Positions 6,148-22,613 of a DNA stretch of 23,839 nt are shown in pieces. Below the pieces are notes generated by a model. The model searched no databases and had not been told where the DNA came from. It worked only from the letters and a program-made list of their open reading frames with translations. The stretch is from IMG/VR virus record IMGVR_UViG_2671180458_000011, one strand, 5' to 3'. Position 1 is the stretch's first letter. Every line of letters starts with the position of its first letter. The stretch comes from a virus (lineage: Duplodnaviria; Heunggongvirae; Uroviricota; Caudoviricetes). A program made the translations under genes and the position numbers.

Positions 6148-7255
6148 ACTGTATCTGGGCGGTGAGATTTTTTCCGGCTGGCTGACGGTGAGTGTTCGTC
6201 GCTCTCTTGAACATCTGGCGGGCTCCTTTGAACTGGGGGTAATGATGCCCGGTGTACGCCTTCCGTCATCCGTCCGTGCCGGTCAGTCTCTGGAATTGCG
6301 CATTGACGGTCAGCCTGTGATCACTGGCTGGCTGGATCAGGTCCGGCAGCGCATCAGCGCCACGCGTTTTCAGATCACGCTCAGCGGACGGGATAAAACC
6401 GGTGACCTGGTGGACTGTTCAGCCATTCATCCGGGCAGCCAGTGGAGGAACCGCACGCTGGAGCACATTGCTTCAGATTTGTGTGCTCCGTTCGGGGTCA
6501 CGGTGCGCTGGCAGGTAAATGATGCAACGGCAGCCCGGCCCTTTTCCACCTTCACACTGGAAAACTCAGAAACCGTGGCAGATGCGCTGACACGGGCCGC
6601 GAGACACAGAGGCGTCCTGGTAACCAGTAATGCCGCCGGTGAACTGGTTTTCACTCAGGCCGGCAGTCAGCGTGGCGACACGCTGACGCTGGGCGAAAAT
6701 CTGCTGGATTTGGATCACAACGTGGATCACCGTCTGCGCCACAGTGAATACCGTGTACGGGGGCACGGGCGTGGTGGTGGTCATGCCGGGGATGCACTGA
6801 CAGCCGGAACGCTGGCCGCACCCGTTGGTACGGTGACAGACAGTGCCATCCACCGTTACAGACCGAAAATTGTGCTGGCGGATCATGCTGTTGATGCAGA
6901 CGGTGCACGCCAGAGGGCTGTCCGGGAAATGCGCCGGGCGGTTGCCCGCTCTGTGCGCCTGACAGCCACCGTGCGGCACTGGTTTCGGGAGAACGGCCAG
7001 TTGTGGGATATCAACCTGCTGACGGCTGTCACGGCTCCCTGCACCGGAGTGGAAGAGCGTGATCTTCTTGTCTGTCAGGTGGAGTTTTCGCTGGATGCAA
7101 ATCACGGCGAAACCACCCGTCTGATTCTGGCACCCCGTGACGGCTTTATTGTTCCGGCAGAGCCGGGAAACAGCGGAAGCGGAAATGCGGGTGACGTGGA
7201 CGCCTTCGTGCGGGCACAGATGAAAAAACAGGGGATTAAATTCAATGATGAATGA
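6131..7255 (+). CDS. baseplate/tail protein (Mu gpP-like)
   Basis: 374-aa ORF with GTG start overlapping the preceding gene; conserved position in the Mu-type baseplate cluster. Confidence 0.7.
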   Translation: MSSRVELYLGGEIFSGWLTVSVRRSLEHLAGSFELGVMMPGVRLPSSVRAGQSLELRIDGQPVITGWLDQVRQRISATRFQITLSGRDKTGDLVDCSAIHPGSQWRNRTLEHIASDLCAPFGVTVRWQVNDATAARPFSTFTLENSETVADALTRAARHRGVLVTSNAAGELVFTQAGSQRGDTLTLGENLLDLDHNVDHRLRHSEYRVRGHGRGGGHAGDALTAGTLAAPVGTVTDSAIHRYRPKIVLADHAVDADGARQRAVREMRRAVARSVRLTATVRHWFRENGQLWDINLLTAVTAPCTGVEERDLLVCQVEFSLDANHGETTRLILAPRDGFIVPAEPGNSGSGNAGDVDAFVRAQMKKQGIKFNDE

Positions 7256-7859
7256 CGAAGTCATCAGCCGCCTTCTGGCCCCCGTAATGCGGGGTGTTCG
7301 TCTGCTGTTCGGGCGTGGTGTACTGACCGGCACAATGGACACGCTGAAAATCCAGAATGTGCAAATCACCGGTATGGATGGTGAAACCTTTGATGACGTT
7401 GAACGCCCCCAGCAGTACGGGCAAATCAGCGTCCCCCTGCCTGGTGCGGAAGTTTTTCTGGCCTGTGCTGGCGGACAACGGGATCAGGCCGTGGTGCTTG
7501 TGGTGGAAGACCGCCGCAGTCGCCCGACCGGACTTACCGCCGGAGATACCGGCGTGTATCACCATGAGGGGCACCGTATACGTCTGACAAAGAACGGCCG
7601 GATCATTGTGACCTGTAAGACGCTGGAGATTTACGCCGATGAAGGTGTTCAGGTGGATACACCGGAGGCTCACTTTACCGGTAATGTCACAGTGGATAAG
7701 AACCTGCATGTCAAAGGCAATGTGTCCATTGACGGCACCGGAAGATCACAGGGGACGTTCACGATGTCCGAAGCGGTTATTGCCGGGATCACCTATTCAG
7801 GTCATGTGCATCACGATAACGGTGAAGGCAGCAAAACGGGAGGACCAGAGAATGGCTGA
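7245..7859 (+). CDS. baseplate assembly protein V-like (Mu gp45-like spike)
   Basis: 204-aa ORF; stop overlaps the next start (ATGGCTGA at 7852-7859), a translational-coupling arrangement. Confidence 0.7.
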   Translation: MMNDEVISRLLAPVMRGVRLLFGRGVLTGTMDTLKIQNVQITGMDGETFDDVERPQQYGQISVPLPGAEVFLACAGGQRDQAVVLVVEDRRSRPTGLTAGDTGVYHHEGHRIRLTKNGRIIVTCKTLEIYADEGVQVDTPEAHFTGNVTVDKNLHVKGNVSIDGTGRSQGTFTMSEAVIAGITYSGHVHHDNGEGSKTGGPENG

Positions 7860-8289
7860 TATTGCTGTCGTCTGGGATCAGGGTTGCGGTTCCCTGCAAC
7901 TGAACGGCGCAGATCTTCTGACGGATAACAGCCTGCTGACTGCGGTCATTATTTCACTGTTTACGGACAGGCGGGCGCTGGATTCCGATGAAATCCCTGA
8001 CGGCACCCGTGACCGTCGGGGATGGTGGGGAGACAGTTTCCGGGAGCGCCCCGTTGGCTCCCGTCTCTGGCTGTTAAGCCGTGAAAAGACGCTGTCCTCC
8101 GTGGTCAGCCGTGCACAGGCCTATGCTGATGAAGCGCTGGCGTGGCTGCATAAAAGCGGTGCTGCCACATCCGTGGTATGTCATGCCATGCGTGTGGGGC
8201 ATGCTCGCCTTTCGCTTTCCGTGAAAATCACCCTGCCGGACGGAAGCAGACATCCGATGATTTTTTATGCTGATATGAAGGGGGAATGA
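7852..8289 (+). CDS. baseplate protein gp46-like
   Basis: 145-aa ORF from ATG 7852 (the ORF track's 7639 start is an upstream in-frame extension overlapping gp45); position between V-like and J-like genes. Confidence 0.7.
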   Translation: MADIAVVWDQGCGSLQLNGADLLTDNSLLTAVIISLFTDRRALDSDEIPDGTRDRRGWWGDSFRERPVGSRLWLLSREKTLSSVVSRAQAYADEALAWLHKSGAATSVVCHAMRVGHARLSLSVKITLPDGSRHPMIFYADMKGE

Positions 8290-9371
8290 TGCCTTATCAG
8301 CCCTTACCACTGGCGCAACTGATCACACAGACACAACAGGATATCAGCCAGCGCCTGCCCGGTTCGCAGCCGGGCGTGAATGAAACCACCCTGAATGCCA
8401 TTGCGTATGCACTCGCGGGTCTGTCAGCACAGGAGCATGAACATCTGGCCTGGATCTCCCGGCAGATAATTCCGACAGAAGCTGATGAAGCCGAACTCCT
8501 GAAACACTGCGCATTCTGGGGTGTCATCCGTAAACCGGCTTCCCGCGCTGACGGACCGGTACAACTGATGCTGACCACGGATGCAGGGATCACGGAAGGC
8601 GTACTCCTTCAGCGAAGCGATGGTGTTGTGTACCGCATCACCGGCTCTGCGACCGGAAAAGCCGGAACACTGAATGTTAATGTGGAGGCGGAAAGTGCGG
8701 GGCGCGCTGGAAATACCCCGACCGGAACCCGCCTGTCCTTTATCACGCCACAGGCGGGCATCAACCAGACAGCCACGGTCACCGGCACGGGACTCACCGG
8801 TGGTGCGGATGTGGAAACGGTGCCGGAGTTGCTGTCCAGGCTGGTATTCCGGGTACAGAACCCGCCATCAGGGGGAACACAGTATGATTTTGAACGCTGG
8901 GCACGGGAAGTACCGGGCGTGACGCGGGCATGGTGTAAGCCTGAATGGCCTGAGGCGGGTAGTGTTGGTGTGACTTTTGTTCAGGATAATAACCCTGACA
9001 TTTTCCCCGGAGAAGGTGATGTGAAGCGGGTGGCGGATTATATCCGCAGTCATGATGATCCGGCGACGGGCCAGCCCGTTGGTCAGCCACTTGGGCCGAC
9101 AATCAGCGTGTTTAAGCTGACCAATAAGCCGGTGGCGTTTGAGATCAGGATTGTACCCAAAACGCCGGAAAATCAGGCTGCCGTAAAACAGGCATTAACG
9201 GACCTGCTTTATAACGAATCGCGGCCGGGTGGACTTGTATTGCCTTCATCATTCTGGCGGGCTGTTGCAGGGGTGAAAGGACTGGAGGATTTTGAAGTTC
9301 GCAGCCCGCTGAAGTCCGTGATGGCCGGAGATACAGAGTTGCTGACCGTGGGGGAAATCACATGGCTGTAA
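8286..9371 (+). CDS. baseplate J-like protein (Mu gp47-like)
   Basis: 361-aa ORF overlapping both neighbours; size and position of baseplate J family. Confidence 0.8.
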   Translation: MMPYQPLPLAQLITQTQQDISQRLPGSQPGVNETTLNAIAYALAGLSAQEHEHLAWISRQIIPTEADEAELLKHCAFWGVIRKPASRADGPVQLMLTTDAGITEGVLLQRSDGVVYRITGSATGKAGTLNVNVEAESAGRAGNTPTGTRLSFITPQAGINQTATVTGTGLTGGADVETVPELLSRLVFRVQNPPSGGTQYDFERWAREVPGVTRAWCKPEWPEAGSVGVTFVQDNNPDIFPGEGDVKRVADYIRSHDDPATGQPVGQPLGPTISVFKLTNKPVAFEIRIVPKTPENQAAVKQALTDLLYNESRPGGLVLPSSFWRAVAGVKGLEDFEVRSPLKSVMAGDTELLTVGEITWL

Positions 9372-9922
9372 CCCTGACCCCGCATCAGCGTGCCCTGTTG
9401 CAGTTGCTGCCTGACGGGCTGGCATGGGATAAGCGGCCGTCATCCGTTCTTGCGGCTTTGTGCCTGGGCCTCAGTCATTCCACGGAGCGTGTTTCCTGGA
9501 CCGGTAACCAGATGCTGGCAGAACGTTTTCCTGATTCATCCCGTCTGCTGCTGGAAGACTGGGAGCGTTATCTGGGGTTACCGGAATGTGATATGACCGG
9601 CGCAACCATTCAGGAGCGTCAGCGTTATGCCGGGAATAAATACCGGATGAAACCCTCTCTTAACCGTGAATTTTATATCCGGTTTGCGGCAGAGTTTGGT
9701 TATGAAATAGATATTCAGCCATCACCGGATTCACAGTGGGTCAGTATTGTCACGATTAACAGTGAAACCGGCTACCGGAATATGAATGTGCTGGATGATA
9801 TTCTCACCCCGCTGCGTATTTATGAGGGTGGTGCGCTGGAATGTATTCTGAACCGTTATAAGCCTGCATGGCAGACGTTTATTTACGTGTATGCAAACAG
9901 CCATGAAGAGGAGACTATTTAA
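9362..9922 (+). CDS. tail protein gp48-like (DUF2313/YmfQ-like)
   Basis: 186-aa ORF directly upstream of the tail fiber gene; its stop overlaps the tail fiber ATG (TAATG at 9920-9924). Confidence 0.7.
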   Translation: MAVTLTPHQRALLQLLPDGLAWDKRPSSVLAALCLGLSHSTERVSWTGNQMLAERFPDSSRLLLEDWERYLGLPECDMTGATIQERQRYAGNKYRMKPSLNREFYIRFAAEFGYEIDIQPSPDSQWVSIVTINSETGYRNMNVLDDILTPLRIYEGGALECILNRYKPAWQTFIYVYANSHEEETI

Positions 9923-10833
9923 TGTTTCATGTTGATAATAATTCCGGCGTGGCGAATATGCCTGCGCTGGCACCGGCGCAGAGTAATACCACCACCTGGT
10001 TTACCGAAGGTGACGGACAAAAAGGTATCAGCTGGATTGGTCAGGACTGGCTGAATATTCTCCAGGCCGAACTGCTGAATATTCTGGCTGAAGCCAGTAT
10101 TCAGCCGGATAAGGCGCAGTTAAACCAGCTTACGCTGTCCATTAAAGCCATTATCGCTGCGAATGCCTTTTCCCGGAAAAACAACCTGAAAGAAATTGCT
10201 GATGCCGGTGCGGAAGCCCAGCGTCTTGCCCGTAGTTATCTTGGTCTTGGGGCGCTTGCCACAAAAAACAGTCTTGGTCCCGGTGACGTTAATGCTCTGG
10301 CGAAGGATCAGAACCTTGCCGACCTGGAGAATGCGGGAACCGCCCGTAATAATCTGGATGTTTACAGCAAAAGCGAAGGTGATAACCGTTACCTGCGCAG
10401 GGAGCAGAACGGCGCAGACATTCCGGATAAAGGCGCTTTTATCGATAACGTCGGTTTACGGGAAACGGTAAATAAGGCTGCTGATGCCCTGCCATCGGGT
10501 GGAACCGCCGTGGCAGCAAACAGACTCGCCACCCCAAGAAATATTAATGGCGTTCCTTTTGACGGAACGCAGGATATCAACATCACGTCAGGAATGACGC
10601 AGTCAACCGCAGATGGCCGGTATGTACAGAATGTTCAGCTTGGAGCACAGAGCTATCATTCACCCGGAGGCAATGAAATATCATGGAATTACAGCGCACC
10701 TTCCGGTTGTATGCTTTCCGGTATTAACGTGCAGGAAACCGGCTCCCGGTCTGCGGACAATATCGGTGGGGTCTATTATCGCCCGGTTCAGATTTATATT
10801 AATAATGCCTGGAGAACGGTAAGTTCAGTGTAA
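9922..10833 (+). CDS. tail fiber protein: constant part (9922 to about 10451) fused to the currently in-frame variable part Sv (about 10465-10833)
   Basis: 303-aa ORF; a gix-like crossover site lies inside it at 10439-10464; its C-terminal tail resembles that of the inverted cassette on the opposite strand. Confidence 0.8.
   Translation: MFHVDNNSGVANMPALAPAQSNTTTWFTEGDGQKGISWIGQDWLNILQAELLNILAEASIQPDKAQLNQLTLSIKAIIAANAFSRKNNLKEIADAGAEAQRLARSYLGLGALATKNSLGPGDVNALAKDQNLADLENAGTARNNLDVYSKSEGDNRYLRREQNGADIPDKGAFIDNVGLRETVNKAADALPSGGTAVAANRLATPRNINGVPFDGTQDINITSGMTQSTADGRYVQNVQLGAQSYHSPGGNEISWNYSAPSGCMLSGINVQETGSRSADNIGGVYYRPVQIYINNAWRTVSSV
10439..10464 (+). other. gix-like recombination site, left (inside tail fiber gene)
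   Basis: TTATCGATAACGTCGGTTTACGGGAA: 26-bp site with two imperfectly symmetric 12-bp halves around a 2-bp core, closely resembling the Mu gix / Hin hix architecture. Confidence 0.7.
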
Positions 10834-10843
10834 ACCACAGAAA

Positions 10844-10862
10844 AGGGTGCTGAATGCACCCT
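10844..10862. terminator. stem-loop between convergent tail fiber and tfa genes
   Basis: 7-bp stem AGGGTGC/GCACCCT with 5-nt loop, between tail fiber stop (10833) and tfa stop (10868); T-rich stretch follows on the + strand. Confidence 0.35.
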
Positions 10863-10867
10863 CTGAA

Positions 10868-11440
10868 TTATTCCGGTTTTTCCGGCCAGGGAATCGCCTG
10901 GTAATGCCCCTCACTGGCAATATCATTAAAGTGCATTTCTTTAAGCTGTCGGATATACGCCATCCAGCGCGTCAGCTGTAATTTATTTTCATCGCTAATC
11001 ATGTCCAGTTTTAATTCTGTTTTCCAGTCATCCACGGTTTCGTTGGCTTCCTGGAGCAGCGATGAGCGACGCTTTTCAGCAACCGTCTTCCAGTTTACCG
11101 GCACCTTTGATATCAGGCCATCAGAAAACTGCCAGTTACCGTCAATATTCACACCTTCCGGCAGTTCGTCCACTTCAACAACAGTAAAACCTGCCGGATA
11201 TAAAGCAGAGACATCTTCAGCAACAGAGCAGATAATACCCGTTACAGGCGAAATACAGAGTTTGTATTTCTTTGTGAAAAGCGGGATAGATTCATAAAAA
11301 TCCCTTCCGTCCTCACTCTGGAAATACTGAACATCCTCACCATAGGGTTTGTCTTTCGGGTAATATCGTTTGACATTAATCAGTTGCATAAACATCACCA
11401 TGTAAATCAATGATAAAAACAGGAATAATACTATCGCCAT
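10868..11440 (-). CDS. tail fiber assembly protein (Tfa/U'-like), paired with the inverted Sv' cassette
   Basis: C-terminus ends in the Tfa-type motif (IPWPEKPE). The first 17 codons are strongly hydrophobic, so the real start may be the internal ATG at 11389. Confidence 0.65.
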   Translation of the reverse strand: MAIVLFLFLSLIYMVMFMQLINVKRYYPKDKPYGEDVQYFQSEDGRDFYESIPLFTKKYKLCISPVTGIICSVAEDVSALYPAGFTVVEVDELPEGVNIDGNWQFSDGLISKVPVNWKTVAEKRRSSLLQEANETVDDWKTELKLDMISDENKLQLTRWMAYIRQLKEMHFNDIASEGHYQAIPWPEKPE

Positions 11441-11510
11441 ATACAGGCAATGCTTGTCTGAAATAACGCATATTTCAGATGCTGGCTGCTGTGTGCTATG
11501 CCCCCGTTAA

Positions 11511-11877
11511 TTAAATACTTGCAGCGGATACCCAATGCCCATTAATACAATATTGTATCTGTCTGTAATAAACACGGTCATCACCACCACGCATTTCCCA
11601 GTCTCCGTTAGTCTTAAAACCGGTAATCACATTTCCTGATGACAGGGAGTAATTATATTCCAGTCCGCCGCTTAATGCCTGCGCTCCCAGTCTTACCCCT
11701 GTAACATAACGCTGATTGGCCGTTGATTCCGGCATTCCTGACGTAATGTTTATATCCTGCGTGCCGTCAAAGGCGACACCATTGATTCTGCGGGCATTTG
11801 CCAGCCTGCTTGCTGCAACAGCCGTACCGTTTGATGGCAGGGCATTCGCGGCCCTGTTTACAGTATCCCGTAAACCG
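11511..11877 (-). CDS. alternative tail fiber C-terminal cassette (Sv'), promoterless in the current orientation
   Basis: Minus-strand frame open from the right gix-like site to the stop at 11511; C-terminus resembles that of the + strand fiber. Confidence 0.6.
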
Positions 11878-11890
11878 AGGTTTCAGGGAT
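11865..11890 (-). other. gix-like recombination site, right (inverted relative to left site)
   Basis: ATCCCGTAAACCGAGGTTTCAGGGAT; the 12-mer CCCGTAAACCGA is the exact reverse complement of TCGGTTTACGGG in the left site; sits just upstream of gin as in Mu. Confidence 0.7.
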
Positions 11891-11944
11891 GCCGTATATC
11901 TGCTTTAAAAGGCCTTTCCACCTCTTTTTAAGGAAGGTAAATAC

Positions 11945-12505
11945 ATGCTGATTGGCTATATACGCGTATCAACAAATGACCAGAACACAGGTTTACAAAG
12001 AAATGCGCTGGAATGTGCAGGATGTGAGCAGATTTTTGAAGACAAAATGAGTGGTAAAACGACACAGCGGCCGGGACTGAAGCGGGCACTGAAGAAACTA
12101 AAACCCGGTGACACGCTGATGGTCTGGAAACTGGACAGGCTGGGGCGCAGTATGCGCCACCTTGTTGCGCTGACAGATGAATTACAGCAACAGGGGATAA
12201 ATTTTCGTAGTCTTACTGACAACATTGATACGTCAACCCCCATGGGGCGCTTCTTTTTTCACATAATGGGTGCGCTGGCAGAAATGGAGCGTGAATTAAT
12301 TGTCGAACGGACACGGGCTGGTCTTGCAGCTGCCCGTGAAAGGGGACGAACCGGCGGCAGACCCCGCCGTCTCACGCAGGAACAATACGAGCAGGTCGGG
12401 CGTTTACTGGCCGGGGGTGTCAGTCGAAGACAGGTGGCACTTATTTTTGATATCGGTCTTTCAACCCTTTATCGTTATTATCCTGCGAGCGTTTCGGAAA
12501 AATAA
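11945..12505 (+). CDS. gin: serine DNA invertase (Gin/Pin/Hin family)
   Basis: 186-aa protein beginning MLIGYIRVSTNDQNTGLQRNALECAGCEQIFEDK, near-identical in pattern to Mu Gin including the catalytic-serine N-terminal domain and C-terminal HTH; AAGGAAGG Shine-Dalgarno upstream. Confidence 0.9.
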   Translation: MLIGYIRVSTNDQNTGLQRNALECAGCEQIFEDKMSGKTTQRPGLKRALKKLKPGDTLMVWKLDRLGRSMRHLVALTDELQQQGINFRSLTDNIDTSTPMGRFFFHIMGALAEMERELIVERTRAGLAAARERGRTGGRPRRLTQEQYEQVGRLLAGGVSRRQVALIFDIGLSTLYRYYPASVSEK

Positions 12506-12604
12506 GACGCTCTCTTTGTTGGGCCTTTACTGAATTAACGCAAAATGGCGTTTATCGGTCTGTGGATATGATAATTCAGTTTATTCAGGAACAGGCTGAT
12601 TATT

Positions 12605-14644
12605 ATGACGTCCAAATGGGTTCAACTATCATCAATGCCCGGAAACTTTACTGTTAAAGTTTCCGGTGGTACAGCGGCATTTCTTGAGGCTCCCTTTCCT
12701 CCGGCCGAAACAAAAGGAGGAATGACATTTGCTGACTGTCTCATCAGTTTTAATACACGGGATTGCCTGTGGGTAAGGCCAGTATCCGGTGATCCGAGTG
12801 TGGAAATTACCGGAGCGGGTATTGGTGCGGTCATTCCGTTAAGTGCTGATGTTGCCGGTACTGCTGAACCGTCAGACTGGGATAATGCTGAAACACATAC
12901 CCGTCCGTCAGGAAATGAAACTGCTTCCAGCTCCCCTTCCTGGTATTACGTGGTGGTTCTTGCTGGTCAGTCAAACGGTATGGCTTACGGTGAAGGTCTG
13001 CCACTGCCGGAGACATATGACCGCCCCGAACCGCGTATTATGCAGTTAGCCCGTCGCAGTACAGTCACGCCGGGAGGTAAAGCCTGTCAGTATAACGACA
13101 TCATTCTGGCCGACCACTGTCTGCATGATGTGCAGGATATGAGTGGAAAAAATCACCCGAAAGCGGATGTGGCTAAAGGGCAATATGGCACCGTGGGTCA
13201 GGGGCTTCACATTGCCAAAAAACTGCTGCCGTTTATTCCGGCAGATGCGGGGATTCTGCTGGTTCCCTGCTGCCGTGGTGGTTCTGCATTCACGGCGGGT
13301 GCTGACGGCACGTACAGTGACAGCACGGGTGCTTCAGAGGACTCAGCCCGCTGGGGTGTGGATAAGCCGCTGTATAAGGACTTAATCAGCCGGACAAAAG
13401 CGGCACTGGCGAAGAACCCGAAAAACCGCCTGCTTGCTGTGGTGTGGATGCAGGGCGAGTTTGATATTGATGCGAAGCCGACGGAGCATTCTGCGCTGTT
13501 TCTGGCGATGGTGGAAAAATTCCGCGCAGACCTGGCTGAACAGGCGGAACAGTGTACCGGTGGCAGTGCTGCTGGCGTTCCGTGGATTTGTGGTGATACC
13601 ACGTATTTCTGGAAACAGAAAAACGAACAGGCATACCAGGCAATCTATGACGGCTACAAAAATAAAACAGATAAAAACATTCATTTCGTCCCATTAATGA
13701 CAGATGAAAATGGCGCGAATGTACCCACCAACAATCCGGCAGAAGACCCGGATATTGAATCCATTGGTTATTACGGCTCAACGTGGCGTAACAGTGCCGC
13801 CACCTGGACATCTGCGGACCGGGCCAGCCATTTCAGTTCATGGGCACGTCGTGGGATTATTTCCGACCGTCTGGCCACGGCAGTTCTGACTCATGCGGGG
13901 CGAACCACAGTAAAAGCCGATGTTCCATCTTCTGAAACTGAAGCACCAGTGCCGTCACCTTCAGAAACTGAAGCAGTAACCACAACACTGCTGTCTTACC
14001 GTGTCAGTGAGTCAGAAGGAAATCTGAAAGCCCAGGGCTGGGAGCCGGCTGGCGGTAAAGCTGAAATTATCAGTGATGCAGGAGGCACAGGTGGTAAGGC
14101 AATGAAACTGACCAAGGAAACAGGTAAATCATCCTGGTATCTGGATCATGATGCCGGTACTGGTGCTGAACTGCTGAAAAATGGTGGTTTAATCAGTTGT
14201 CGTTTTAAAGTACCGGGCGACCTGGTGGCAAACCAGTATGTCATGGCGCTTTACTGGCCGGTTTCCTCTCTGCCGCAGGGTGTCACCCTGACAGGGGATG
14301 CAGGGAATAATCTGCTGGCATCGTTCTACATCCAGACAGACGCAAAAGACCTGAATGTGATGTACCACAATGCAAAAGTGGCAACAAATAACCAGAAACT
14401 GGGAACCTTTGGTGCATTTGATAATGAATGGCATACGCTGGCCTTCCGTTTTGCAGGAAATAACAGCCTTCAGGTTATTCCGGTTATTGATGGTCAGGAT
14501 GGTGCCGCGTTTACCCTGACGCAGTCACCAGTAGGAACTTTCCCGGTGGACAAACTCCGCGTAACGGATATCACAAAAAATGCAACTTACCCGGTGCTGA
14601 TTGACAGCATTGTGGTGGAAGTGAAAAAAGCGGTAACAGAATAA
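12605..14644 (+). CDS. SGNH/SASA-type esterase with C-terminal lectin-like domain (NanS-p-like sialate O-acetylesterase candidate)
   Basis: 679 aa; GQSNG block at about residue 120, WMQGEFD block and a D-x-x-x-H block consistent with SASA/DUF303 esterases; Pro/Ser/Thr/Glu-rich linker then about 230-aa beta-rich domain. Family call from motif recognition only. Confidence 0.5.
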   Translation: MTSKWVQLSSMPGNFTVKVSGGTAAFLEAPFPPAETKGGMTFADCLISFNTRDCLWVRPVSGDPSVEITGAGIGAVIPLSADVAGTAEPSDWDNAETHTRPSGNETASSSPSWYYVVVLAGQSNGMAYGEGLPLPETYDRPEPRIMQLARRSTVTPGGKACQYNDIILADHCLHDVQDMSGKNHPKADVAKGQYGTVGQGLHIAKKLLPFIPADAGILLVPCCRGGSAFTAGADGTYSDSTGASEDSARWGVDKPLYKDLISRTKAALAKNPKNRLLAVVWMQGEFDIDAKPTEHSALFLAMVEKFRADLAEQAEQCTGGSAAGVPWICGDTTYFWKQKNEQAYQAIYDGYKNKTDKNIHFVPLMTDENGANVPTNNPAEDPDIESIGYYGSTWRNSAATWTSADRASHFSSWARRGIISDRLATAVLTHAGRTTVKADVPSSETEAPVPSPSETEAVTTTLLSYRVSESEGNLKAQGWEPAGGKAEIISDAGGTGGKAMKLTKETGKSSWYLDHDAGTGAELLKNGGLISCRFKVPGDLVANQYVMALYWPVSSLPQGVTLTGDAGNNLLASFYIQTDAKDLNVMYHNAKVATNNQKLGTFGAFDNEWHTLAFRFAGNNSLQVIPVIDGQDGAAFTLTQSPVGTFPVDKLRVTDITKNATYPVLIDSIVVEVKKAVTE

Positions 14645-14649
14645 AAAAA

Positions 14650-14678
14650 TCCCGCCGGTCATGATATGGCTGGCGGGA
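14650..14678. terminator. stem-loop after the esterase gene; canonical intrinsic terminator only when read on the minus strand
   Basis: Stem TCCCGCC/GGCGGGA (extendable with wobble pairs) with A7 run immediately 5' on the + strand, which is a U-tract 3' of the hairpin on the minus strand. Confidence 0.4.
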
Positions 14679-14790
14679 GCTACCTAACCCATAAAGGAAA
14701 ATAAAAATACTCCCGAAGGAGTGGTTATCAGTCGCTTCGATGTTTTTACCCGATAACGAATTATGTAGTCAATATCAAAGGTAAGGTTAT

Positions 14791-14973
14791 ATGACATTCG
14801 TTCATACAATGCTGCTTTATTTCTGCGCAGTGGTCAGTGCGTTATATCTGGTGAGCGGCGGTTATAAGGTCATCAGAAATTATATTCGCCGTAAAATTGA
14901 TGATGCGGCAGCTGAAAAACTCAGTAAAACAGCACAGGCACCGTCATCCCCAAACGACCCGACCCCGCTCTGA
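14791..14973 (+). CDS. small predicted membrane protein (60 aa), unknown function
   Basis: Single N-terminal hydrophobic helix then charged tail; AAAGGTAAGG Shine-Dalgarno-like sequence upstream; AT-rich foreign-looking DNA. Confidence 0.4.
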   Translation: MTFVHTMLLYFCAVVSALYLVSGGYKVIRNYIRRKIDDAAAEKLSKTAQAPSSPNDPTPL

Positions 14974-15008
14974 TAACGGGGCAATATACCTGCAAAAGGA
15001 GAATATTC

Positions 15009-15254
15009 ATGCCAGAGATTAAAGGCACGGTTACTGAAGAGCTTGTCAAACAGGCACTTTATTCTGAAGAAGTGAACCGCGTGCTGAAGGCGCAGGTTCG
15101 CAAGGATTTTGAGGCACAAATCGACGCATATGTTGATGAAGTGCTGGCCCGAATGGTTGGCCATTCTCCGGCTGAAAACAGCACGGAGAATGAGCCTCAA
15201 GCCGTAGAGCAACCAGAGCCGGTTCAGCCCGGAACTGACGGTACTATGATGTAA
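15009..15254 (+). CDS. small acidic protein (81 aa), unknown function
   Basis: AAAGGAGA Shine-Dalgarno 7 nt upstream of ATG; helical-looking N-terminal half and acidic Pro/Glu-rich tail; followed by a hairpin. Confidence 0.45.
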   Translation: MPEIKGTVTEELVKQALYSEEVNRVLKAQVRKDFEAQIDAYVDEVLARMVGHSPAENSTENEPQAVEQPEPVQPGTDGTMM

Positions 15255-15263
15255 CAATACCGA

Positions 15264-15283
15264 CCGGCAGGTTTCCCTGCCGG
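15264..15283. terminator. hairpin between convergent small genes
   Basis: CCGGCAGG-TTTC-CCTGCCGG, 8-bp stem with 4-nt loop, between the + gene ending 15254 and the minus gene ending 15293. Confidence 0.4.
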
Positions 15284-15292
15284 GTGAATTTG

Positions 15293-15463
15293 TTAATGCA
15301 CGTTTTGTGTACTTTCCCTCCGGGGAGAACAGGCAGGACATATCAGCATCCTGAAACAGGACGCATTTTGGGGTTTGTATGTCTTGCCATTTTGAGATCG
15401 AGAACGGCGATAGATGAGCTGTAAGGGAGTCTTACAGGCAGGGCAAACAGGCTCTTTATCCAT
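15293..15463 (-). CDS. small zinc-ribbon protein (56 aa, two CPAC motifs), unknown function
   Basis: Minus-strand ATG at 15463 preceded by AGGAGA with 8-nt spacing; Cys-Pro-Ala-Cys at residues 7-10 and 41-44. The ORF track's longer version (to 15487) starts upstream of the Shine-Dalgarno sequence. Confidence 0.4.
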   Translation of the reverse strand: MDKEPVCPACKTPLQLIYRRSRSQNGKTYKPQNASCFRMLICPACSPRRESTQNVH

Positions 15464-15565
15464 GATAAAGATCTCCTTTTTATGCATCTCTGCTTTACAG
15501 GAGACCGGGGAATATCATAGGATACGCCACGAGCTCGAAGTAAAGCATTGATGCGAATTTGTTCC

Positions 15566-15595
15566 AGGTCCAGATAGCTGTAACTATCTGGACCT
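15566..15595. promoter_or_regulatory. perfect 12-bp inverted repeat with 6-bp spacer (candidate operator or hairpin)
   Basis: AGGTCCAGATAG ctgtaa CTATCTGGACCT in the divergent intergenic region between the zinc-ribbon gene and com. Confidence 0.4.
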
Positions 15596-15643
15596 CCCTT
15601 TATGTAGTATCCTGTTGATTTGAAACATACTACATATACGCGC

Positions 15644-15821
15644 GATCCTACCTTCACTGTATAAAAAGTCAATAAAATGATCATTTTATGATCGTTTTCA
15701 CCACCTAAGTCTTCGTTTTCTTTAAGTAAATAATCACCGCCCTGAATCATTGTTGATGACTTTTCAATCTATTTGTTGTATCAATTAAACAAATCGAATC
15801 GATCGTTTTTGTCGATCGATT
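15644..15821 (+). promoter_or_regulatory. GATC-dense mom-operon control region (candidate Dam-methylation-sensitive promoter region)
   Basis: Five GATC sites in about 175 bp (15644, 15679, 15690, 15801, 15814), including a 9-bp inverted repeat AATCGATCG n7 CGATCGATT at 15797-15821 just upstream of com. Confidence 0.45.
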
Positions 15822-15864
15822 GCATGAGAAAGGCATCAACAACAAAGCAGGAGGTTATGCGGCC

Positions 15865-16065
15865 ATGTATCGAAACATACGGTGCCGACACTGCAATAAG
15901 CTACTGGCACGGGCCAGTTTCAGTTATCTGGAAGTAAAATGTCCGCGCTGTAAAACCCTCAATCAAATCACATCTCCGAGCGCCACAGAGCACCCCACAT
16001 ACACAAGGAAATCCTGTCGTGGGGAACAGAAAGCAAGCCACATCCCGTATCATCAGCACGCCTGA
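15865..16065 (+). CDS. com: Com-like zinc-finger translational activator of mom
   Basis: [14 protein letters not shown]...VKCPRCKTL...EHPT matches the Mu Com four-cysteine pattern; AGGAGG Shine-Dalgarno 10 nt upstream of ATG 15865 (ORF track starts at TTG 15820); 3' end overlaps the next gene as in Mu. Confidence 0.7.
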
Positions 16066-16756
16066 ACTTATTCGCTATAACGACAATATCGTTGGTTATG
16101 GCTCCCGTGAGTTGCGGGTTGAGACAATAAGTTGCTGGCTGGCCAGACTGGTCATCGTCAATAAACATTACAGCCACCGTTTCGTAAATAACTCCTACCT
16201 TCATCTGGGCATATTTTCAGAACGGGAGCTGGTTGGCGTAATGCAATGGGGCTATGCCCTTAATCCAAACAGTGGTGCACGCGTCGTAACGGGCACGCGG
16301 AACCGTGAATATATGGAGCTTAACCGGTTATGGCTGCATGACTGTATGCCGAGAAACTCCGAATCAAGGGCAATCAGTTACGCGCTCAAGCTAATCAGGC
16401 AGCTTTATCCGCAGGTACAGTGGGTTCAGTCGTTTGCAGATGAGCGTTGTGGCTGTCTTGGTGTCGTGTATCAGGCAAGCAATTTTGATTATGTAGGCAG
16501 CCACGAATCAACATTCTATGAACTTGATGGCGAGTGGTATCACGAGATTTGCAGGAATGCCATTAAACGAGGCGGACAGCGAGGTGAACATCTGAGGGCT
16601 AATATCGACAGAGCCAGTGTTCATAAATTCCGTCAGTTTCGTTACATCCGGTTTCTGAACAAGAGGGCCAGAAAACGCCTCAACACAAAGCTATTCAAAG
16701 TCCAGCCTTACCCAAAACCACAAACAGTTAAAACTGGTTTAAAAGAGAGTGAGTGA
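16019..16756 (+). CDS. mom: Mom-like DNA modification protein
   Basis: 245-aa ORF (GTG start) beginning inside the 3' end of com, the characteristic com-mom overlap; last gene before the prophage right end as in Mu. Called from context, not from remembered sequence. Confidence 0.6.
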
Positions 16757-18044
16757 ACGCTTAAAAACTCATTCTAAAACCCAAAAGAAAAGCGCCGATT
16801 TAGTATCAAATAAGTTGCGTATCGGCGTTTTTCAGCGGTATCAAATGAAATGCAAATCGGTATCAAAAAAATCGCCGCGCTATAATAAGCAGCTCAGAGC
16901 TGCCAATAAAGTCACTAACGTGCTGGATACAGAACTCACATCAGCCCGTGCCGCGGAACGTAAGGCCCAGCAAACTGCACAACAAGGTATGAAGGAAGAA
17001 GAGCGAGAGTTGTGCGCGTCACATTTTCCAGTGGTGACTTTGGAGCAATTGCCTGACATTCGCGATTTAGAACGTCAACATGAGCGGGGAATTCAGCATG
17101 AAATTGAAAGAGTTAAAGCTGAACTACATCGACTGAACATTGAGTTGACCAAACGTATGTCTGAAGCCAAACGTGTGGATACCGGGGCGCTCGTTGAGGC
17201 AGGGGCTGATTTGGACGATATTACTGTTTATTTACAGCGTTTGCAGGAACTGACCGAAGAAGCCCTGCCGGAAAAGCTCAATCGCTTCCTTGATTATCTT
17301 AACCGTTCATCCGATGACGGCGTAACACAACTGCTTAGCCATATTGAGCATGAGGTGCTGGTGATTGAGGAGCGCCTCAATGAACTCAATGAAACTATGT
17401 TCAGGGTTGATTTTCAGCCGTATCGCTACCTGCGTCTGGATACCAAAAAAGTTGTCCATGAAAGCCTGCGCACGCTTGAAAAAGCACAGCGTCAGCTAAA
17501 TGCCGCCCGATTTGTTGATGATAATGGCGAGAGCTATTATAAGGCTTTGCAGATACTGGTGGCGCAATTGCGGGATGCTTGTGAACGAAACCGTACCCTG
17601 GGAGCAAAAGCGCTACTGGATCCCCGTTTTCGACTGGAGTTCGCCGTATCGGTGATGGATCGTCAGAGCGGAAATGTGATTGAGTCTCGTACCGGCTCAC
17701 AGGGTGGTAGCGGTGGAGAAAAAGAGATTATCGCTTCTTACGTGTTAACAGCTTCACTTAGCTACGCACTTTGTCCTGCGGGGAGCCGTTATCCGCTTTT
17801 CGGTACCATTATCCTTGATGAAGCCTTCTCCCGCAGTTCTCATGCGGTGGCGGGTAGGATCATTGCCGCGCTTAGAGAATTTGGCTTACATGCAGTATTT
17901 ATCACCCCCAATAAGGAAATGCGCCTGCTGCGTGACCATACTCGTTCGGCGATTGTTGTCCACCGGCGCGGTCAGAATTCCAATATGGCTTCTCTGAGCT
18001 GGGAAGAGCTTGAACGACACTACCAGCGACGGGGGAACGCGTAG
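16749..18044 (+). pseudogene. jetC 3' fragment: C-terminal half of a Wadjet SMC-like ATPase, truncated by the prophage
   Basis: Contains signature-like GSGGEKE, Walker B IILDEAF and an H-loop His but no Walker A; the first 48 codons or so (16749-16896) are a Lys-rich read-through of phage-end sequence; coiled-coil-like sequence begins about 16897. Confidence 0.6.
16800..16896 (+). repeat. prophage right-end repeat array (candidate transposase-binding sites) ending in CA
   Basis: Three direct copies of GTATCAAA at 16803, 16838 and 16860 plus ATCGGCG/ATCGCCG motifs; GCGTTTTTC at 16825-16833 resembles part of the Mu R-end; terminal CA at 16895-16896. Confidence 0.4.
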
Positions 18045-18045
18045 G

Positions 18046-19194
18046 ATGTATTCCCCAGATGAATTGCGTGAAAAGCTTGCCCGGCAGTGGGATAGCGCAA
18101 AACTTCGGGCTGAACGCTTACTGTCCCCCGGTAACTGGCCGCTCTGCCTGCCTATTGGTAAACCTTCCACGAAAATATTTGCAGAGCAGACTCAGCGCGT
18201 TTTGCAGCACGTACAGCGATGGAGGCAAGTTGCGGTTGGGCACGTGGAATGGGAAGCGGTGAGTTATCGGGCAAGTGATACACCAGTATTAATGCCGTTG
18301 CGCTGGATTCTGAATAGCCCTTCTGAGTGGATCAACGCCGCTGCGGATCCGGTTGTGAGCCGGGAATTTCGCTTGCTGGAAGGAATTATTGAACAAGTTA
18401 ATCCCATTTTTCACCCGCTGTTGGTAAAGCATCGCTCTCTCTGGCGGCACAAAGATCCGCAGGGCGTCATCAGCGCCGCCACGCTGGCCTGCCGATTAGA
18501 GCCGGGCTGCGCAAAAGGGCTGCCGTTAAGATTGCTTTCCGGGCAAGGAGTGGATACCAAATTTATCGAGAATAATATTTCGTTATTAACCCGACTGTTA
18601 GACGTGCGGTTTTCAGGAGAAGCCAGCGAGCAGGGATTAACAACTTTTCTTGATGCTTTTGATGAGTCCAGTCACTGGGTTTTAGTTGTACCATTATCAC
18701 CCGGCTTACTTCCTTTTAAAAAATGCCGGGTAACAACGGCGGAACTGGCAGAAACAACATTACCTGCGTCGCAAGTACTGGTGGTTGAAAATGAGCAGTG
18801 TCTGCATCATCTTCCAGCATTATCTGACACTATCGCGATTTTAGGCTGTGGCCTGGACGTGCAATGGCTATCCAGTTCTGTTCTGGATGAAAAACGCGTT
18901 GCTTATTGGGGGGACATGGATAGCTGGGGATTACTGATGCTGGCGAGAGCCAGGCGCTGTCGTCCGACGCTTGATGCCCTGCTCATGAACCGTGAGTTGT
19001 TTGAGCAGTATGCCAGTCATAGCGCCGTTCCAGAACCGGTCATAGCGAAGGAAGCTGTACCTGATGGCTTGCTTAACGAAGAGGCCGATTTTTATCGCTA
19101 CTTAACCCGTTTACCGTGTGGTCGTCTGGAGCAGGAGTTTTTGCCAGTGGGGATTGCGGAAGAGGTGCTTCTCAGGTGGGGAAAAGAGAGTTAA
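18046..19194 (+). CDS. JetD-like Toprim-domain protein (Wadjet subunit D)
   Basis: ATG at 18046 two nt after the jetC stop (ORF track starts at TTG 18010); about 382 aa with VVENE and YWGDMD motifs typical of the DUF2220 Toprim-like domain. Confidence 0.65.
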   Translation: MYSPDELREKLARQWDSAKLRAERLLSPGNWPLCLPIGKPSTKIFAEQTQRVLQHVQRWRQVAVGHVEWEAVSYRASDTPVLMPLRWILNSPSEWINAAADPVVSREFRLLEGIIEQVNPIFHPLLVKHRSLWRHKDPQGVISAATLACRLEPGCAKGLPLRLLSGQGVDTKFIENNISLLTRLLDVRFSGEASEQGLTTFLDAFDESSHWVLVVPLSPGLLPFKKCRVTTAELAETTLPASQVLVVENEQCLHHLPALSDTIAILGCGLDVQWLSSSVLDEKRVAYWGDMDSWGLLMLARARRCRPTLDALLMNRELFEQYASHSAVPEPVIAKEAVPDGLLNEEADFYRYLTRLPCGRLEQEFLPVGIAEEVLLRWGKES

Positions 19195-19552
19195 AAAAGT
19201 CATGCTTGCTCTGGAAGGTTATTTACGCGGTATTTTGTAGTGGTTGTTGCGAAAGTCTGCGTTGATGGTCCTGATACCTTACCGGGTAGAGGGACTTTCC
19301 ATCAGTCAGTTTAGATACTGTGGCAACTGTCGCCTTTAGGTGGACAAATGCATAAATTATTAAACTATTAAATTTCTTGTTTTCAGGCAGCAGAGAGAAG
19401 GTATATCAGAGGGTACTGAGGTGTATAAACGTCACGAACATCCGTGAAAAGGCGAAAAAAACCAGCCAATAGATAATGCTTTGCAATGGCCAGAAATCTA
19501 CCGTAGCCAGAAAGTGAAAAAGCCCCGCTTTGCAGCGAGGCCTTATGAATAG

Positions 19553-19747: not shown

Positions 19748-20590
19748 TTATATCGCTAACGCTCCGGGATAGTGCTTAGCAATAATATCATTAAGCCTGT
19801 CAACCAGCTCTGGTTTCCTGAACGTGATGTGCGCGGAGCCCTTCTTAAAGTATCTGATGCTGAACATCTCATCTTCATAGTCCTCTTTACCCTGAACAGA
19901 CTGGACGTGATCATCCAGATGAATAGTGATGTTTTCCCGGTTGTCGGGGATCGGTTTGCCGCTGAACAGGTGTAGCATTCTTTCCAGATCAGCAAGTCGA
20001 TCTGCCTGTTGCCCGGTGATAAGATGAAAGCCCCACCGGTCCCACCTCATCAGGTTGTTGACGATAATTTTACTGCCAAATTTGCAGGGGCAATTGGTTT
20101 TGTAATTCCAGCTCAACCCTCTGAAGACGTTGATCACCCCCCGCTCAAACACCTCATCCTTATTCTGGTGCAGTTGTTCAAATGTGCTCAGAATGTTCGC
20201 TTCACTGATTTCCGGAAAATTATCGTATTCCAGTGACCGGTACCATGTATCACGGGCCTGTGCATCCATTAAGGAAAGCATCCCGGAACGTTGCATCAGG
20301 TCACGCCAGATTTCGCGATCGAGATTGCGTGTGATGGCTTTCATTGCGGTTTCAGGTTTCTCCATCAGCCAGCAACCGCAGTGAAAATTCTGTTTCATGG
20401 CCCAGTCCAGTGCGGTTTTACCGCCAATGCTTTCTGTCATTGCTGAGATTTCAGCCAGTTGCCGGATAAGTGTGTCGATTTGCAGCAGTGTACTCTTTCG
20501 TACAGCCAGAATGTGGAGGATACTGGTTGAGCAGATAACGTCCGTATGCCAGTTGACAACTTCCGGACGGGAGACTGTGATATCAGACAT
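19748..20590 (-). CDS. conserved hypothetical protein (280 aa; possibly DUF4942 family)
   Basis: Long ORF at the extreme island end next to the att repeat; family name is a tentative recollection. Confidence 0.5.
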   Translation of the reverse strand: MSDITVSRPEVVNWHTDVICSTSILHILAVRKSTLLQIDTLIRQLAEISAMTESIGGKTALDWAMKQNFHCGCWLMEKPETAMKAITRNLDREIWRDLMQRSGMLSLMDAQARDTWYRSLEYDNFPEISEANILSTFEQLHQNKDEVFERGVINVFRGLSWNYKTNCPCKFGSKIIVNNLMRWDRWGFHLITGQQADRLADLERMLHLFSGKPIPDNRENITIHLDDHVQSVQGKEDYEDEMFSIRYFKKGSAHITFRKPELVDRLNDIIAKHYPGALAI

Positions 20591-20674
20591 AATCGATATT
20601 CCTTTTTGCAGATAAATGAAAACGCCAGCCCTGTTCAGGCTGGCGTCAGTGGAATGAAGTCTGGTGAGTGAGAG

Positions 20675-20872
20675 TCACCGGTTCTGGTGCAGAAGCTGCA
20701 ACTGGCGCAGTGTACGGATATCTTCCCTGGCCTGTTCAATGCAGGGCAGCAGTGCTGCCGAATCCGTTTTATCCTCATCGTTGTCAAAGATAATTCCCGA
20801 TTCGCAGTCGATATTGTCCTGCAGCCACGCAATCAGAATATCCAGCGCTGTTTCCGTGGTTAATGATTTCAT
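20675..20872 (-). CDS. small conserved protein (65 aa; YeeW-like, possibly DUF957)
   Basis: ATG at 20872, 11 nt after the stop of the upstream gene; the ORF track's longer version (to 20917) overlaps that gene. Confidence 0.45.
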   Translation of the reverse strand: MKSLTTETALDILIAWLQDNIDCESGIIFDNDEDKTDSAALLPCIEQAREDIRTLRQLQLLHQNR

Positions 20873-20883
20873 GTTGTTTCTGG

Positions 20884-21372
20884 TTACCAGTTGAAAGTGG
20901 GTAAACCCGGCAGGCATTCAGCGCTGGCATCCAGATGAATGAGACTGACGCCATAACGTCGGGTAAGTGTGACAACCAGACGGCGGAACGTTTTTGACAG
21001 CCCCAGGCGTTTAAGCCGCAGAACCGGGTATGACCACGCATCGGTACGTAACAGATATCCGCTACCTGTGAAATGAATCCATTCTGATTCGCCGGTGTCA
21101 TTCGTCTGATGTGACAGCGAGTACAGCCAGGCGTTGTCCTTTGCAGTGATATGCGCGGTACTGCAGCGTATGCCGGTCAGGGCAGCAAATGGTGGCGTGC
21201 AGTCTGTTGAGACCCGGTCAGATTCATCAACAACACGAAGGGAGTGGCCATTGTCGCAGACCACGTTAATCAGTTCAGCGAGATTAACACCATCGACGTC
21301 AACGACAATTCGTCCCATGTTCAGCGTCTGCACGTTAACGCTGTCTGCTTCCAGCGTCAGAGTCAGTTTCAT
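20884..21372 (-). CDS. conserved hypothetical protein (162 aa; possibly DUF5983), translationally coupled to cbtA
   Basis: Start overlaps the cbtA stop (ATGA-type overlap at 21369-21372). Confidence 0.5.
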
Positions 21373-21746
21373 TGTTTCGCCTCCGGATGCTTCCCCTGGG
21401 TAATGTTATTTACCGTTCTGTAATTGTCGCGGGTCATCAGGCCGGTCGCCCTGCGAGCCCGGAGGATATCGATGCTGTTTATTAACTGAGAACGGGTACA
21501 GGCATTGAATTCCGGCTGGTCGGTACGCACCAGTGCGTATTTTTCAACAAGAAAGTTCACTGCATCGCACAGTGAAATGCCAGCTTCAATATGCTGCTCA
21601 ATCACACGTTCATCGGCAAACGGTGTGTCATTCAGTGTGAGGCCATAATGCTGGTCCAGCAGTCGGATGAGCAGTGTCTGCCAGATGGTGACGGGAGACG
21701 GGCAGCGAGATACCTCCCGTACATGTGTGTCGGATAATGTTTTCAT
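21369..21746 (-). CDS. cbtA: CbtA/YeeV-family toxin (type IV TA, cytoskeleton-targeting)
   Basis: [14 protein letters not shown]...[48 protein letters not shown] matches the CbtA/YeeV/YkfI/YpjF family; start taken at the internal ATG 21746 (ORF track 21848 extends into the antitoxin gene). Confidence 0.85.
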
Positions 21747-21792
21747 CTTAAGTTCTCTGTAACTGGTAGTGCTAAAGGTGAGAGCTTCGGGG

Positions 21793-22167
21793 TTATGAGG
21801 TGGTTGCGGGTGCCTGTGCCGGATAAACAGCCAGATAAACGTAACCACAGGAGCCGAGGGTGTCGGCTTCGCAGGTCAGCCCTTTTGCATACAGCGTGAC
21901 GGTATGCTGATTTCGGGGATTCAGTTCACCGCTGGTGAGCATGAGTTCCAGTTGTTTCATCAGCAGCGGAAAGGCCTGGTCCAGATGGTATGCATCTGCG
22001 TCGCTGAAGCGGCCGCTGATACCGGCGCGGTCGGCAAGGTAATGCAACCGGTTACCCTCCTGCACCAGACGGGCGCCAAAACAGGGTTTCACTGTGCAGG
22101 GAAGCCCCCACCAGGGGCGGTCGTGATTGTCGTCGGGATGAGTTATCCCGGAGAGTTTGTCTGACAC
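21793..22167 (-). CDS. cbeA: CbeA/YeeU-family antitoxin (type IV TA)
   Basis: 124 aa with [16 protein letters not shown]...[19 protein letters not shown], the YeeU/YfjZ/YafW family pattern; directly upstream of the toxin. Confidence 0.85.
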
Positions 22168-22329
22168 GATAAAATCCTCTCTGAAAAGTGGTTAAGAATG
22201 GTTTAACGATGACAGGTCAGCCGGGGCACTGACCGGTTTCGGTGAAGATGTATGCATTGATGAGAATGGCCTCATCCACAGCGGCGTCTGAGGTCATCTG
22301 GTCGTACTCGTTTCCCGGGTGACGGAACA

Positions 22330-22551: not shown

Positions 22552-22613
22552 AGTGTGATACCTCTGAAGACAGAAGATAAAAGTGAAAACAAGCGTGATG
22601 TGGTTGTGACGGG

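Follow-up and report, generated by a model that had tools for sequence, protein, structure and literature searches.

Between the DNA invertase gene gin and the com-mom operon of a Mu-like prophage lies an interval of 3359 bp, whose largest gene encodes an esterase of 679 amino acids. It takes up positions 12506-15864 of the virus record IMGVR_UViG_2671180458_000011, a stretch of 23,839 nucleotides that we call the window. We consider it probable that the interval is a NanS-p esterase cassette, gained from a lambdoid slot and kept between gin and the mom operon with a sialic-acid benefit to the lysogen. Judged by homology, the large protein is a NanS-p-type sialate O-acetylesterase. The interval is a lineage-wide fixed passenger of the Sp18 lineage and not a changing slot.

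The map of open reading frames (ORFs), Pfam scans and BLAST show that bases 1-16884 of the window belong to a Mu-like, Sp18-type prophage, of which they form the right-hand part. The stretch from gin to mom is 98.5% identical in nucleotides to that of Sp18 (ECs_4992 to ECs_4998), the Mu-like prophage of Escherichia coli O157:H7 Sakai, with the same gene order. Sp18 has been predicted to be intact and Mu-like (PMC2669165). In the window the tail and baseplate genes are followed by a short invertible tail-fibre segment, gin, the interval, com and mom. Together with a Mu-type right end and varied insertion sites, the invertible segment, gin, com and mom mark this as an Sp18-type Mu-like prophage.

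The interval runs exactly from the gin stop to the com start, the latter placed as annotated in Sakai and in strain 2010C-3347. The original prediction took it for an insert between genes that are near neighbours in phage Mu, and this holds, since the two are 94 bp apart in Mu. E. coli W has a Mu prophage with an equal gap of 94 bp; in Yersinia phage vB_YpM_3 the gap measures 58 bp, and a prophage of Edwardsiella has ~186 bp there. In Edwardsiella and at three metagenome or genome loci of other taxa, com-mom comes straight after gin or a tail-fibre assembly gene and the cargo is absent. Except for the gap, the arrangement is like the right end of Mu: the invertible segment, gin, com and mom follow one another as they do there, GATC sites cluster upstream of com, and the Gin proteins have 75% amino acid identity, with C-terminal tails that differ past STLY(K/R). 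All the contents that had been announced are present, namely the esterase ORF, two small plus-strand ORFs, a minus-strand zinc-ribbon ORF and hairpins (Table 1).

The part from about residue 105 of the esterase to the end of the DUF826 gene (~12920-15254) is homologous to lambdoid phages. On the alignments it is a lambdoid late-region cassette in a Mu-like genome, because the same families follow nanS-p in ASU11 and Stx2-1717, the spacer aligns and the DNA is 78-81% identical. The latter identity spans bases 12939-14633 and is to the nanS-p genes of ~300 Stx and lambdoid phage records. Phage ASU11, an Stx2 phage, carries nanS-p and the genes for DUF1378 and DUF826 directly upstream of its holin gene, in order and orientation as in the window. 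A DUF826 protein also follows nanS-p in Stx2-1717, and the DUF826 part of this protein, gp45, is 47% identical to the DUF826 protein here. The spacer between nanS-p and the DUF1378 gene can be aligned between the Mu-type and the lambdoid cassettes. Both small families have been recorded between nanS-p and S (PMC10462455).

A fusion of DUF1378 with DUF826 in 933W-type phages, in the manner of a Rosetta stone, was considered and discarded. The N-terminus of the 148-residue gp45 of Stx2-1717 is unlike DUF1378, and its DUF826 part starts at Met59, so that translation probably begins downstream of the annotated GTG.

The esterase is 99.4% identical in amino acids to the Sakai gene product ECs_4993. 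In a phmmer search against PDB, its residues 104-428 match NanS (3PT5) over 325 residues at an E value of 1.4e-118, and residues 459-674 match the C-terminal domain of NanS-p (6YP6) at 2.9e-112. The motifs GQSN and RASH are at residues 121-124 and 406-409; Ser and His form the catalytic pair of NanS. The catalytic domain is ~81% identical to the Stx-phage alleles of Stx2-1717 and ASU11. The two motifs correspond to the motif blocks given for NanS and NanS-p (PMC10462455). No signal peptide is recognisable by eye on the esterase.

Compared with the chromosomal NanS (YjhS, 3PT5), the catalytic domain is shared with conserved GQSN and (R)xSH, but NanS is a single-domain chromosomal protein lacking the extra N- and C-terminal domains. 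The NanS-p proteins of Stx and lambdoid prophages (933W z1466/L0105; phi24B vb_24B_21, 6YP6) are closer. They are alike in the SASA domain (~81%), the C-terminal domain (~79%), the downstream DUF1378 and DUF826 genes, the homologous spacer and their residence in prophages from E. coli strains that produce Shiga toxin. They are unlike in having DUF1737 at the N-terminus, where the protein here has an unrelated beta domain of ~80 residues and a linker. Their genes lie between Q or stx and the holin gene, whereas the present one is carried by a transposable Mu-like phage between gin and com-mom, so that Q-dependent late transcription does not apply. Thus the enzyme family and the prophage Sp18 are known, and the variant consists of the replaced N-terminal domain, the Mu-like carrier and the different regulatory context.

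The original prediction saw an accessory slot whose content would vary across related prophages. We searched for empty slots with a chimera of bases 12206-12520, which hold the last 315 bases of the gin region, and 15770-16100; it would match as one place only with gin and com within ~820 bp. Not one of the 233 complete E. coli genomes that hold either half has gin joined to com. This com-mom is found in 226 complete E. coli genomes, and 168 carry at least 80% of the 4.9-kb stretch from gin to mom. The DUF1378/DUF826 block is in 210, of which 173 have it in full.

All five inspected Sp18-type chromosomal prophages, at five sites, have the DUF6645 esterase, DUF1378 and DUF826 in constant order, and so does the Mu-like phage inside an Stx1a phage. 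The insert is absent from Mu, from the Yersinia Mu phages and from Mom-bearing prophages of other genera. Hence the slot is an insertion relative to Mu and all other Mom-bearing Mu-like elements inspected, but within its own lineage the expected variability failed to appear. The same genes at the same place in five relatives come near the conserved core content that the original prediction had set against itself.

What does vary is the allele of the esterase and DUF1378, and a sub-slot of ~480 bp between the putative terminator behind DUF826 and the com upstream region. Against the window, strain 2012C-4502 is identical in Gin, the N-terminal domain of the esterase and Com (100% each) and close in DUF826 (97.5%), whereas identity drops to 69% in the SASA domain, 40% in the C-terminal domain and 59% in the DUF1378 protein. 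In the Mu-like phage inside the Stx1a phage (L001), the SASA domain is 97.8% and the C-terminal domain 86% identical, and the latter reads by eye like the Stx2-1717 sequence. In P0101, a protein from the database, DUF1737 precedes a body that shares 90% identity with the window allele. On these identities, such mosaic alleles bear the mark of recurrent homologous exchange with the lambdoid nanS-p copies present in the same genome.

The N-terminal region is the part of the esterase that is not lambdoid. Its first ~103 residues have no Pfam match, DUF1737, which every NanS-p described so far has at its N-terminus, is not matched in residues 1-110 even at E<=1, and the N-termini of Stx2-1717 and ASU11 cannot be aligned to it. 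A separate AlphaFold2 (AF2) model predicts residues 1-78 as all-beta, with a pLDDT (predicted local distance difference test) of 71-85, and then a disordered linker. The new element would be this Mu-lineage domain of ~80 residues in the place of DUF1737, a modest variant. It is Mu-type in every Mu-type allele compared. Such a clean N-terminal swap between phage types amounts to a natural experiment on the role of the N-terminal domain, DUF1737 included.

Homologues of the domain are few. An exhaustive HMMER search through 1.84 billion representatives gave five matches. The three informative ones are fragments of SASA esterases with the same N-terminus, at 29% identity for the most distant, and two of them are frameshifted calls of the M3/AST198-type allele. 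A low-complexity repeat protein among the five was taken as spurious. A word-index search found three fragments only. Among 50,697 phage records, two alone have the domain, both of them Stx phages with a Mu-like phage inserted.

The interval had also been described as more AT-rich than the tail module. This is right as worded, with a GC content of 48.3% against 56.7% in the tail module (1-9921), but it is not a mark of the interval. The invertible segment (47.5%), gin (50.3%), com-mom (47.9%) and the host DNA (50-51.5%) are alike, and the values for third codon positions (GC3) are similar. Only 15293-15864 is clearly AT-rich within the interval, with 41.1% GC. The compositional outlier is the GC-rich tail module and not the cargo. 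Composition as a sign of foreign origin was ruled out, because gin, the invertible segment and com-mom share the GC and GC3 of the cargo. The tail and baseplate module peaks at 66% GC in the tape-measure gene, and the prophage is compositionally mosaic with a break near 9500.

The label of a moron fits in part. As with the lambdoid morons in the sense of Juhala and Hendrix, extra genes stand between genes that are adjacent in relatives, terminator-like hairpins come after them and a host benefit is plausible. Unlike those, the cargo has no own promoter identified, resembles its immediate neighbours in composition, holds several genes and is fixed across the lineage. A reciprocal case is seen in the lambdoid-type Aeromonas phage pAEv1818 (L026, 4474-5196), where a Mom homologue of 71% identity lies between the antiterminator gene Q and the lysis genes. 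There, cargo of the Mu right end sits in the lambdoid Q-to-lysis slot.

Host-benefit cargo, as had been proposed, agrees with the main gene, whose family has a published host-benefit activity (PMC8065619, PMC10462455). As recombinant proteins, NanS-p enzymes take O-acetyl groups off Neu5,9Ac2 and mucin glycans, and they bring a growth advantage to EDL933 and O104:H4 (PMC8065619; PMC10462455). With the lambdoid alleles, NanS-p esterases enable the lysogen to grow on 9-O-acetylated sialic acid (PMC8065619, PMC10462455). The defence cargo suggested beside it found no counterpart, as PADLOC, Pfam and NCBIfam scans of all the cargo proteins and of an 86-residue ORF in the M3 allele gave no defence match.

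The gene identities, their distribution and the mosaicism are shown by the analysis; for the origin, enzyme activity, expression, release and fitness benefit, we infer the following course. An ancestor of the Sp18-like E. coli Mu phages would have acquired the esterase, DUF1378 and DUF826 genes from the late-region accessory slot of a lambdoid phage, which has the antiterminator gene Q (or stx) on one side and the holin gene on the other, and the cassette would have been retained between gin and the mom operon since then. By homology, the SGNH/SASA domain with Ser123 and His409 should strip the 9-O-acetyl group from Neu5,9Ac2 and O-acetylated mucin glycans, while the C-terminal lectin-like domain may hold the enzyme on the glycan. 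The product Neu5Ac would enter the nan sialic-acid catabolic pathway of the host and serve as a carbon source in the gut for the lysogen or its kin. Because a signal peptide is not recognisable, the esterase is probably released through lysis of a subpopulation. The lambdoid-homologous block keeps recombining with lambdoid nanS-p copies of the same genomes, and the N-terminal domain and the minus-strand ORFs are specific to the Mu-like lineage.

As to expression, the Mu lysogen transcribes gin. The stretch from gin to the esterase has neither a terminator nor a convincing promoter (12440-12604), so transcription may read through from gin. The promoter scan gave no better than 9 of 12 matches, at 12447-12475 and 12605-12632. 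Two short blocks of this spacer are conserved against the divergent M3/AST198 alleles.

The nanS-p cassette is thus a fixed passenger of a transposable Mu-like phage family in >200 complete E. coli genomes. Since it is fixed there and trades alleles with the lambdoid copies, the copy number and diversity of nanS-p in a strain are not set by Stx and lambdoid phages alone.

Several points weigh against a sialic-acid cassette that serves the lysogen. The DUF1737 of the characterised NanS-p proteins is absent and an unrelated domain stands instead. The regulatory context differs, with no Q-dependent late promoter upstream and no convincing promoter in the scan. The full-length AF2 model, made from an alignment of 16 sequences, has a mean pLDDT of 51 and <30 at the N-terminus; it is unusable and too poor for a structural check of the active site. 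A full-text literature search for ECs4993 returned nothing, as did one on NanS-p in Mu-like phages.

The main rival, which we regard as unlikely, is that the esterase serves the phage. Bound to the virion or released at lysis, it would strip O-acetyl groups from O-antigen, capsule, colanic acid or mucus and aid adsorption or spread, and its N-terminal domain would be a docking module, an adaptor of Mu-type tails as DUF1737 would be on lambdoid virions. The alleles of 2012C-4502 and P0101 recall tail fibres and tailspikes in that a phage-type-specific N-terminal module is conserved at 100% while the catalytic and binding modules are exchanged. The esterase gene lies directly past the block of tail fibre, invertible segment and gin, its N-terminal region is modelled as a small beta domain with a flexible linker, and a review leaves open a role of NanS-p in attachment via de-O-acetylation of lipopolysaccharide (PMC8065619). 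However, the N-terminal domain has no paralogy with the tail proteins in the window, and direct support is lacking. A broader form of the idea, which we rate as quite improbable, would make all NanS-p proteins modular enzymes associated with virions or particles, with DUF1737 or the cupin-like domain of ~80 residues here for phage-type docking, and the esterase and lectin body as an exchangeable receptor-modifying head as in tailspikes. It would also make the esterase, DUF1378 and DUF826, perhaps with a Pas-like antisense small RNA (sRNA), one module moving between unrelated phage types.

That the interval is a truly variable hotspot of morons or defence genes, with the esterase cassette merely as its current occupant, is very unlikely. 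The region 15290-15770 does hold ORFs of the ECs_4996 type in Sakai-like alleles and unrelated sequence in M3/AST198, and mom is swapped for a C5 cytosine methyltransferase in the Mu-like phages inside Stx phages. Yet the count of empty slots is zero, the three-gene content is constant in five divergent chromosomal alleles and the defence scans are blank, which largely refutes variability of gene content in complete E. coli genomes. We give still less credit to a decaying passenger with no current function. It would account for the minus-strand gene, which the annotation pipeline PGAP calls frameshifted in three alleles seen and which has a further 1-bp deletion in a third allele, and for the failure of the scan to identify a promoter upstream of the esterase. 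Against this, the esterase ORF of 2 kb has stayed intact in all six compared alleles as well as in the window, at identities down to 60% and with the catalytic motifs kept. More than 1000 member sequences cluster with it at at least 90% identity, and DUF1378 and DUF826 are intact in every compared allele.

Table 1. Features from gin to mom, in window positions
Feature	Position	Strand	Evidence or remark
gin, serine DNA invertase, left neighbour of the cargo	11945..12505	+	Pfam Resolvase E 1.4e-51 and HTH_7
gin-nanS-p spacer	12506..12604	+	no terminator, no convincing promoter
nanS-p-type sialate O-acetylesterase, 679 aa, homologue of Sakai Sp18 ECs_4993	12605..14644	+	Pfam SASA and DUF6645
Mu-lineage N-terminal region, aa 1-103, in place of DUF1737	12605..12913	+	~78-aa predicted beta domain and disordered Ser/Thr/Pro-rich linker
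SASA/SGNH catalytic domain, aa 104-428, GQSN (Ser123) and RASH (His409)	12914..13888	+	3PT5 alignment
C-terminal lectin-like jelly-roll domain, aa 459-674, DUF6645	13979..14626	+	Pfam E 4.1e-70; 6YP6 match
13-bp GC-rich hairpin abutting the esterase stop	14650..14678	.	A7 on the plus strand, a U7 tail on the minus strand
Second hairpin with T5 run	14714..14748	+	terminator scan, fold
DUF1378 protein, 60 aa, hydrophobic N-terminus	14791..14973	+	Pfam E 1.2e-38; PHROG 494
DUF826 protein, 81 aa, acidic	15009..15254	+	Pfam E 2.1e-15; PHROG 311
8-bp GC hairpin between the convergent DUF826 and zinc-ribbon ORFs	15264..15283	.	fold z -2.9
56-aa zinc-ribbon ORF (CPAC...CPAC) with own AAGGAG Shine-Dalgarno and ATG	15293..15463	-	listed as 15293-15487
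135-aa ORFan, 5' part of ECs_4996 homologue, putative coding	15343..15750	-	PHROG 26524
Perfect 12-bp hairpin inside the ORFan	15566..15595	.	z -4.5 (+), -5.7 (-)
Conserved com upstream region	15768..15864	+	palindrome AATCGATCG-N7-CGATCGATT at 15797-15821, two GATC sites
com	15865..16065	+	Pfam Zn_ribbon_Com E 3.3e-12
mom	16019..16756	+	Pfam Mom E 4.5e-77; 80% aa identity to Mu Mom

Two hairpins follow the esterase gene. Where the first abuts the stop codon, the lambdoid cassettes, and strain E2348/69 at the 3' end of PasC, likewise have a hairpin, though with a different stem sequence. The T-run of the second is conserved in the lambdoid cassettes, and to judge from its sequence this hairpin probably ends the nanS-p transcript. 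The one behind DUF826 has a stem whose position is conserved in the M3/AST198 alleles; it is likely a bidirectional terminator and the right edge of the lambdoid-derived block. Ten terminator-like sites lie in 11700-17000, against 5.5 +/- 2.4 in shuffles. The fold z-scores are -3.5 for the plus strand of 14642-14745, -2.9 for 15255-15295, and for 15555-15610 the two values tabulated for the hairpin within it.

In the enteropathogenic E. coli strain E2348/69, the Hfq-bound sRNAs PasC and PasA are antisense in the spacer just downstream of a prophage esterase gene, with their ends at or close to the stop codon of that gene (PMC8550237 Table S6; bioRxiv 10.64898/2026.05.13.724894). The minus strand of 14645-14790 in the window has TTGACT-18-TAAAAA, then ~100 nt, then the GC hairpin with U7 at the esterase stop. 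This candidate sRNA is like PasA and PasC in layout and similar in sequence only in the terminator. The hairpin folds better on the plus strand (z -3.5) than on the minus strand (-1.3). Rfam found nothing at the gathering score and one chance-level match at E<=1. We claim no homology of the spacer to PasA/PasC, as the likeness is positional only.

The minus-strand ORFs lie in the variable sub-slot. The zinc-ribbon ORF, for which Pfam gives weak zinc-ribbon hints only, is by its reading frame the 3' part of a frame-variable pair. It is separate in the window, 2010C-3347, 2012C-4502 and L001, whereas one extra G in Sakai (window ~15457; L002 ~9560) joins both ORFs into the 154-residue ECs_4996. 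Fused and unfused forms are both common in the databases, and in alleles identical to that of the window, the PGAP annotation of the unfused form is a frameshifted pseudogene. The ORFan has 28 homologues, all E. coli or unnamed, and no Pfam domain. Sakai Sp18 differs from the window also in the hairpin inside: Sakai and 2012C-4502 have another perfect hairpin at the same place (L002 ~9640-9680), with the structure kept and the sequence swapped. In the M3 and AST198 prophages the ~480-bp sub-slot (15290-15770) is an unrelated sequence with the 86-residue ORF, which has no Pfam or NCBIfam family match.

The com upstream region is identical in all Sp18-type alleles, M3/AST198 included; at the corresponding position in Mu, three GATC sites are clustered. 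The last GATC lies 48 nt from the com ATG here and ~95 nt from it in Mu, which means that the mom promoter must be laid out differently. At 15775-15821, 'ATCAATTAAA' and then the GATC-rich palindrome mirror 'GAATCAATTAA' at the 3' terminus of gin in Mu, together with the GATC cluster there. By this resemblance, the stretch may be a relic of the ancestral gin end that marks the right edge of the insertion.

Two Stx phages have a Mu-like phage inserted in them, and in these inserts a 350-residue C5 cytosine DNA methyltransferase (TIGR00675) stands behind com in place of mom. The methyltransferase is at L001 12131-13183 (Stx1a phage LC727895), where the upstream nanS-p cassette is retained. In the E. 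coli M3 prophage (L005, 2366-2671), gin is lost but for a 3' remnant of ~60 bases and the alternative fibre end is lost too, while the esterase cassette is kept.

The invertible segment is short and G-like, spanning 10446-11883 between inverted gix-like sites at 10446-10459 (minus) and 11870-11883 (plus). Its inverted arms of 179 nt are 74% complementary. Within the segment are one tail-fibre assembly gene, here on the minus strand, and an ORF of only 74 residues for an alternative tail-fibre C-terminus. The orientation of the segment is reversed in strain 2012C-4502.

The right end of the prophage is at 16884 (...GCGCTATA), where four copies at different sites diverge. Host DNA matches of 16600-19300 start exactly at 16885, in agreement with this end. 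Sp18-type prophages are found at six different insertion sites, in sorM (as in Sakai), an Ig-like adhesin gene, flgL, gspM, melA and, here, jetC.

The interrupted jetC belongs to a type I Wadjet anti-plasmid system (window 16885-19194). The ORF at 16749-18044 aligns to positions 694-1097 of the 1108 in the JetC model, and an intact jetD comes next at 18010-19194. Nine complete E. coli genomes match the 3' part of jetC and jetD from 16885 on, eight of them at 99.9-100%, and none has the prophage junction. Past jetD, the host DNA on the minus strand (19748-23591) is a segment of a CP4-type island. Its genes encode a DUF4942 protein, a YeeW-like DUF5983 protein, a CbtA/CbeA type IV toxin-antitoxin pair, RadC and an antirestriction protein.

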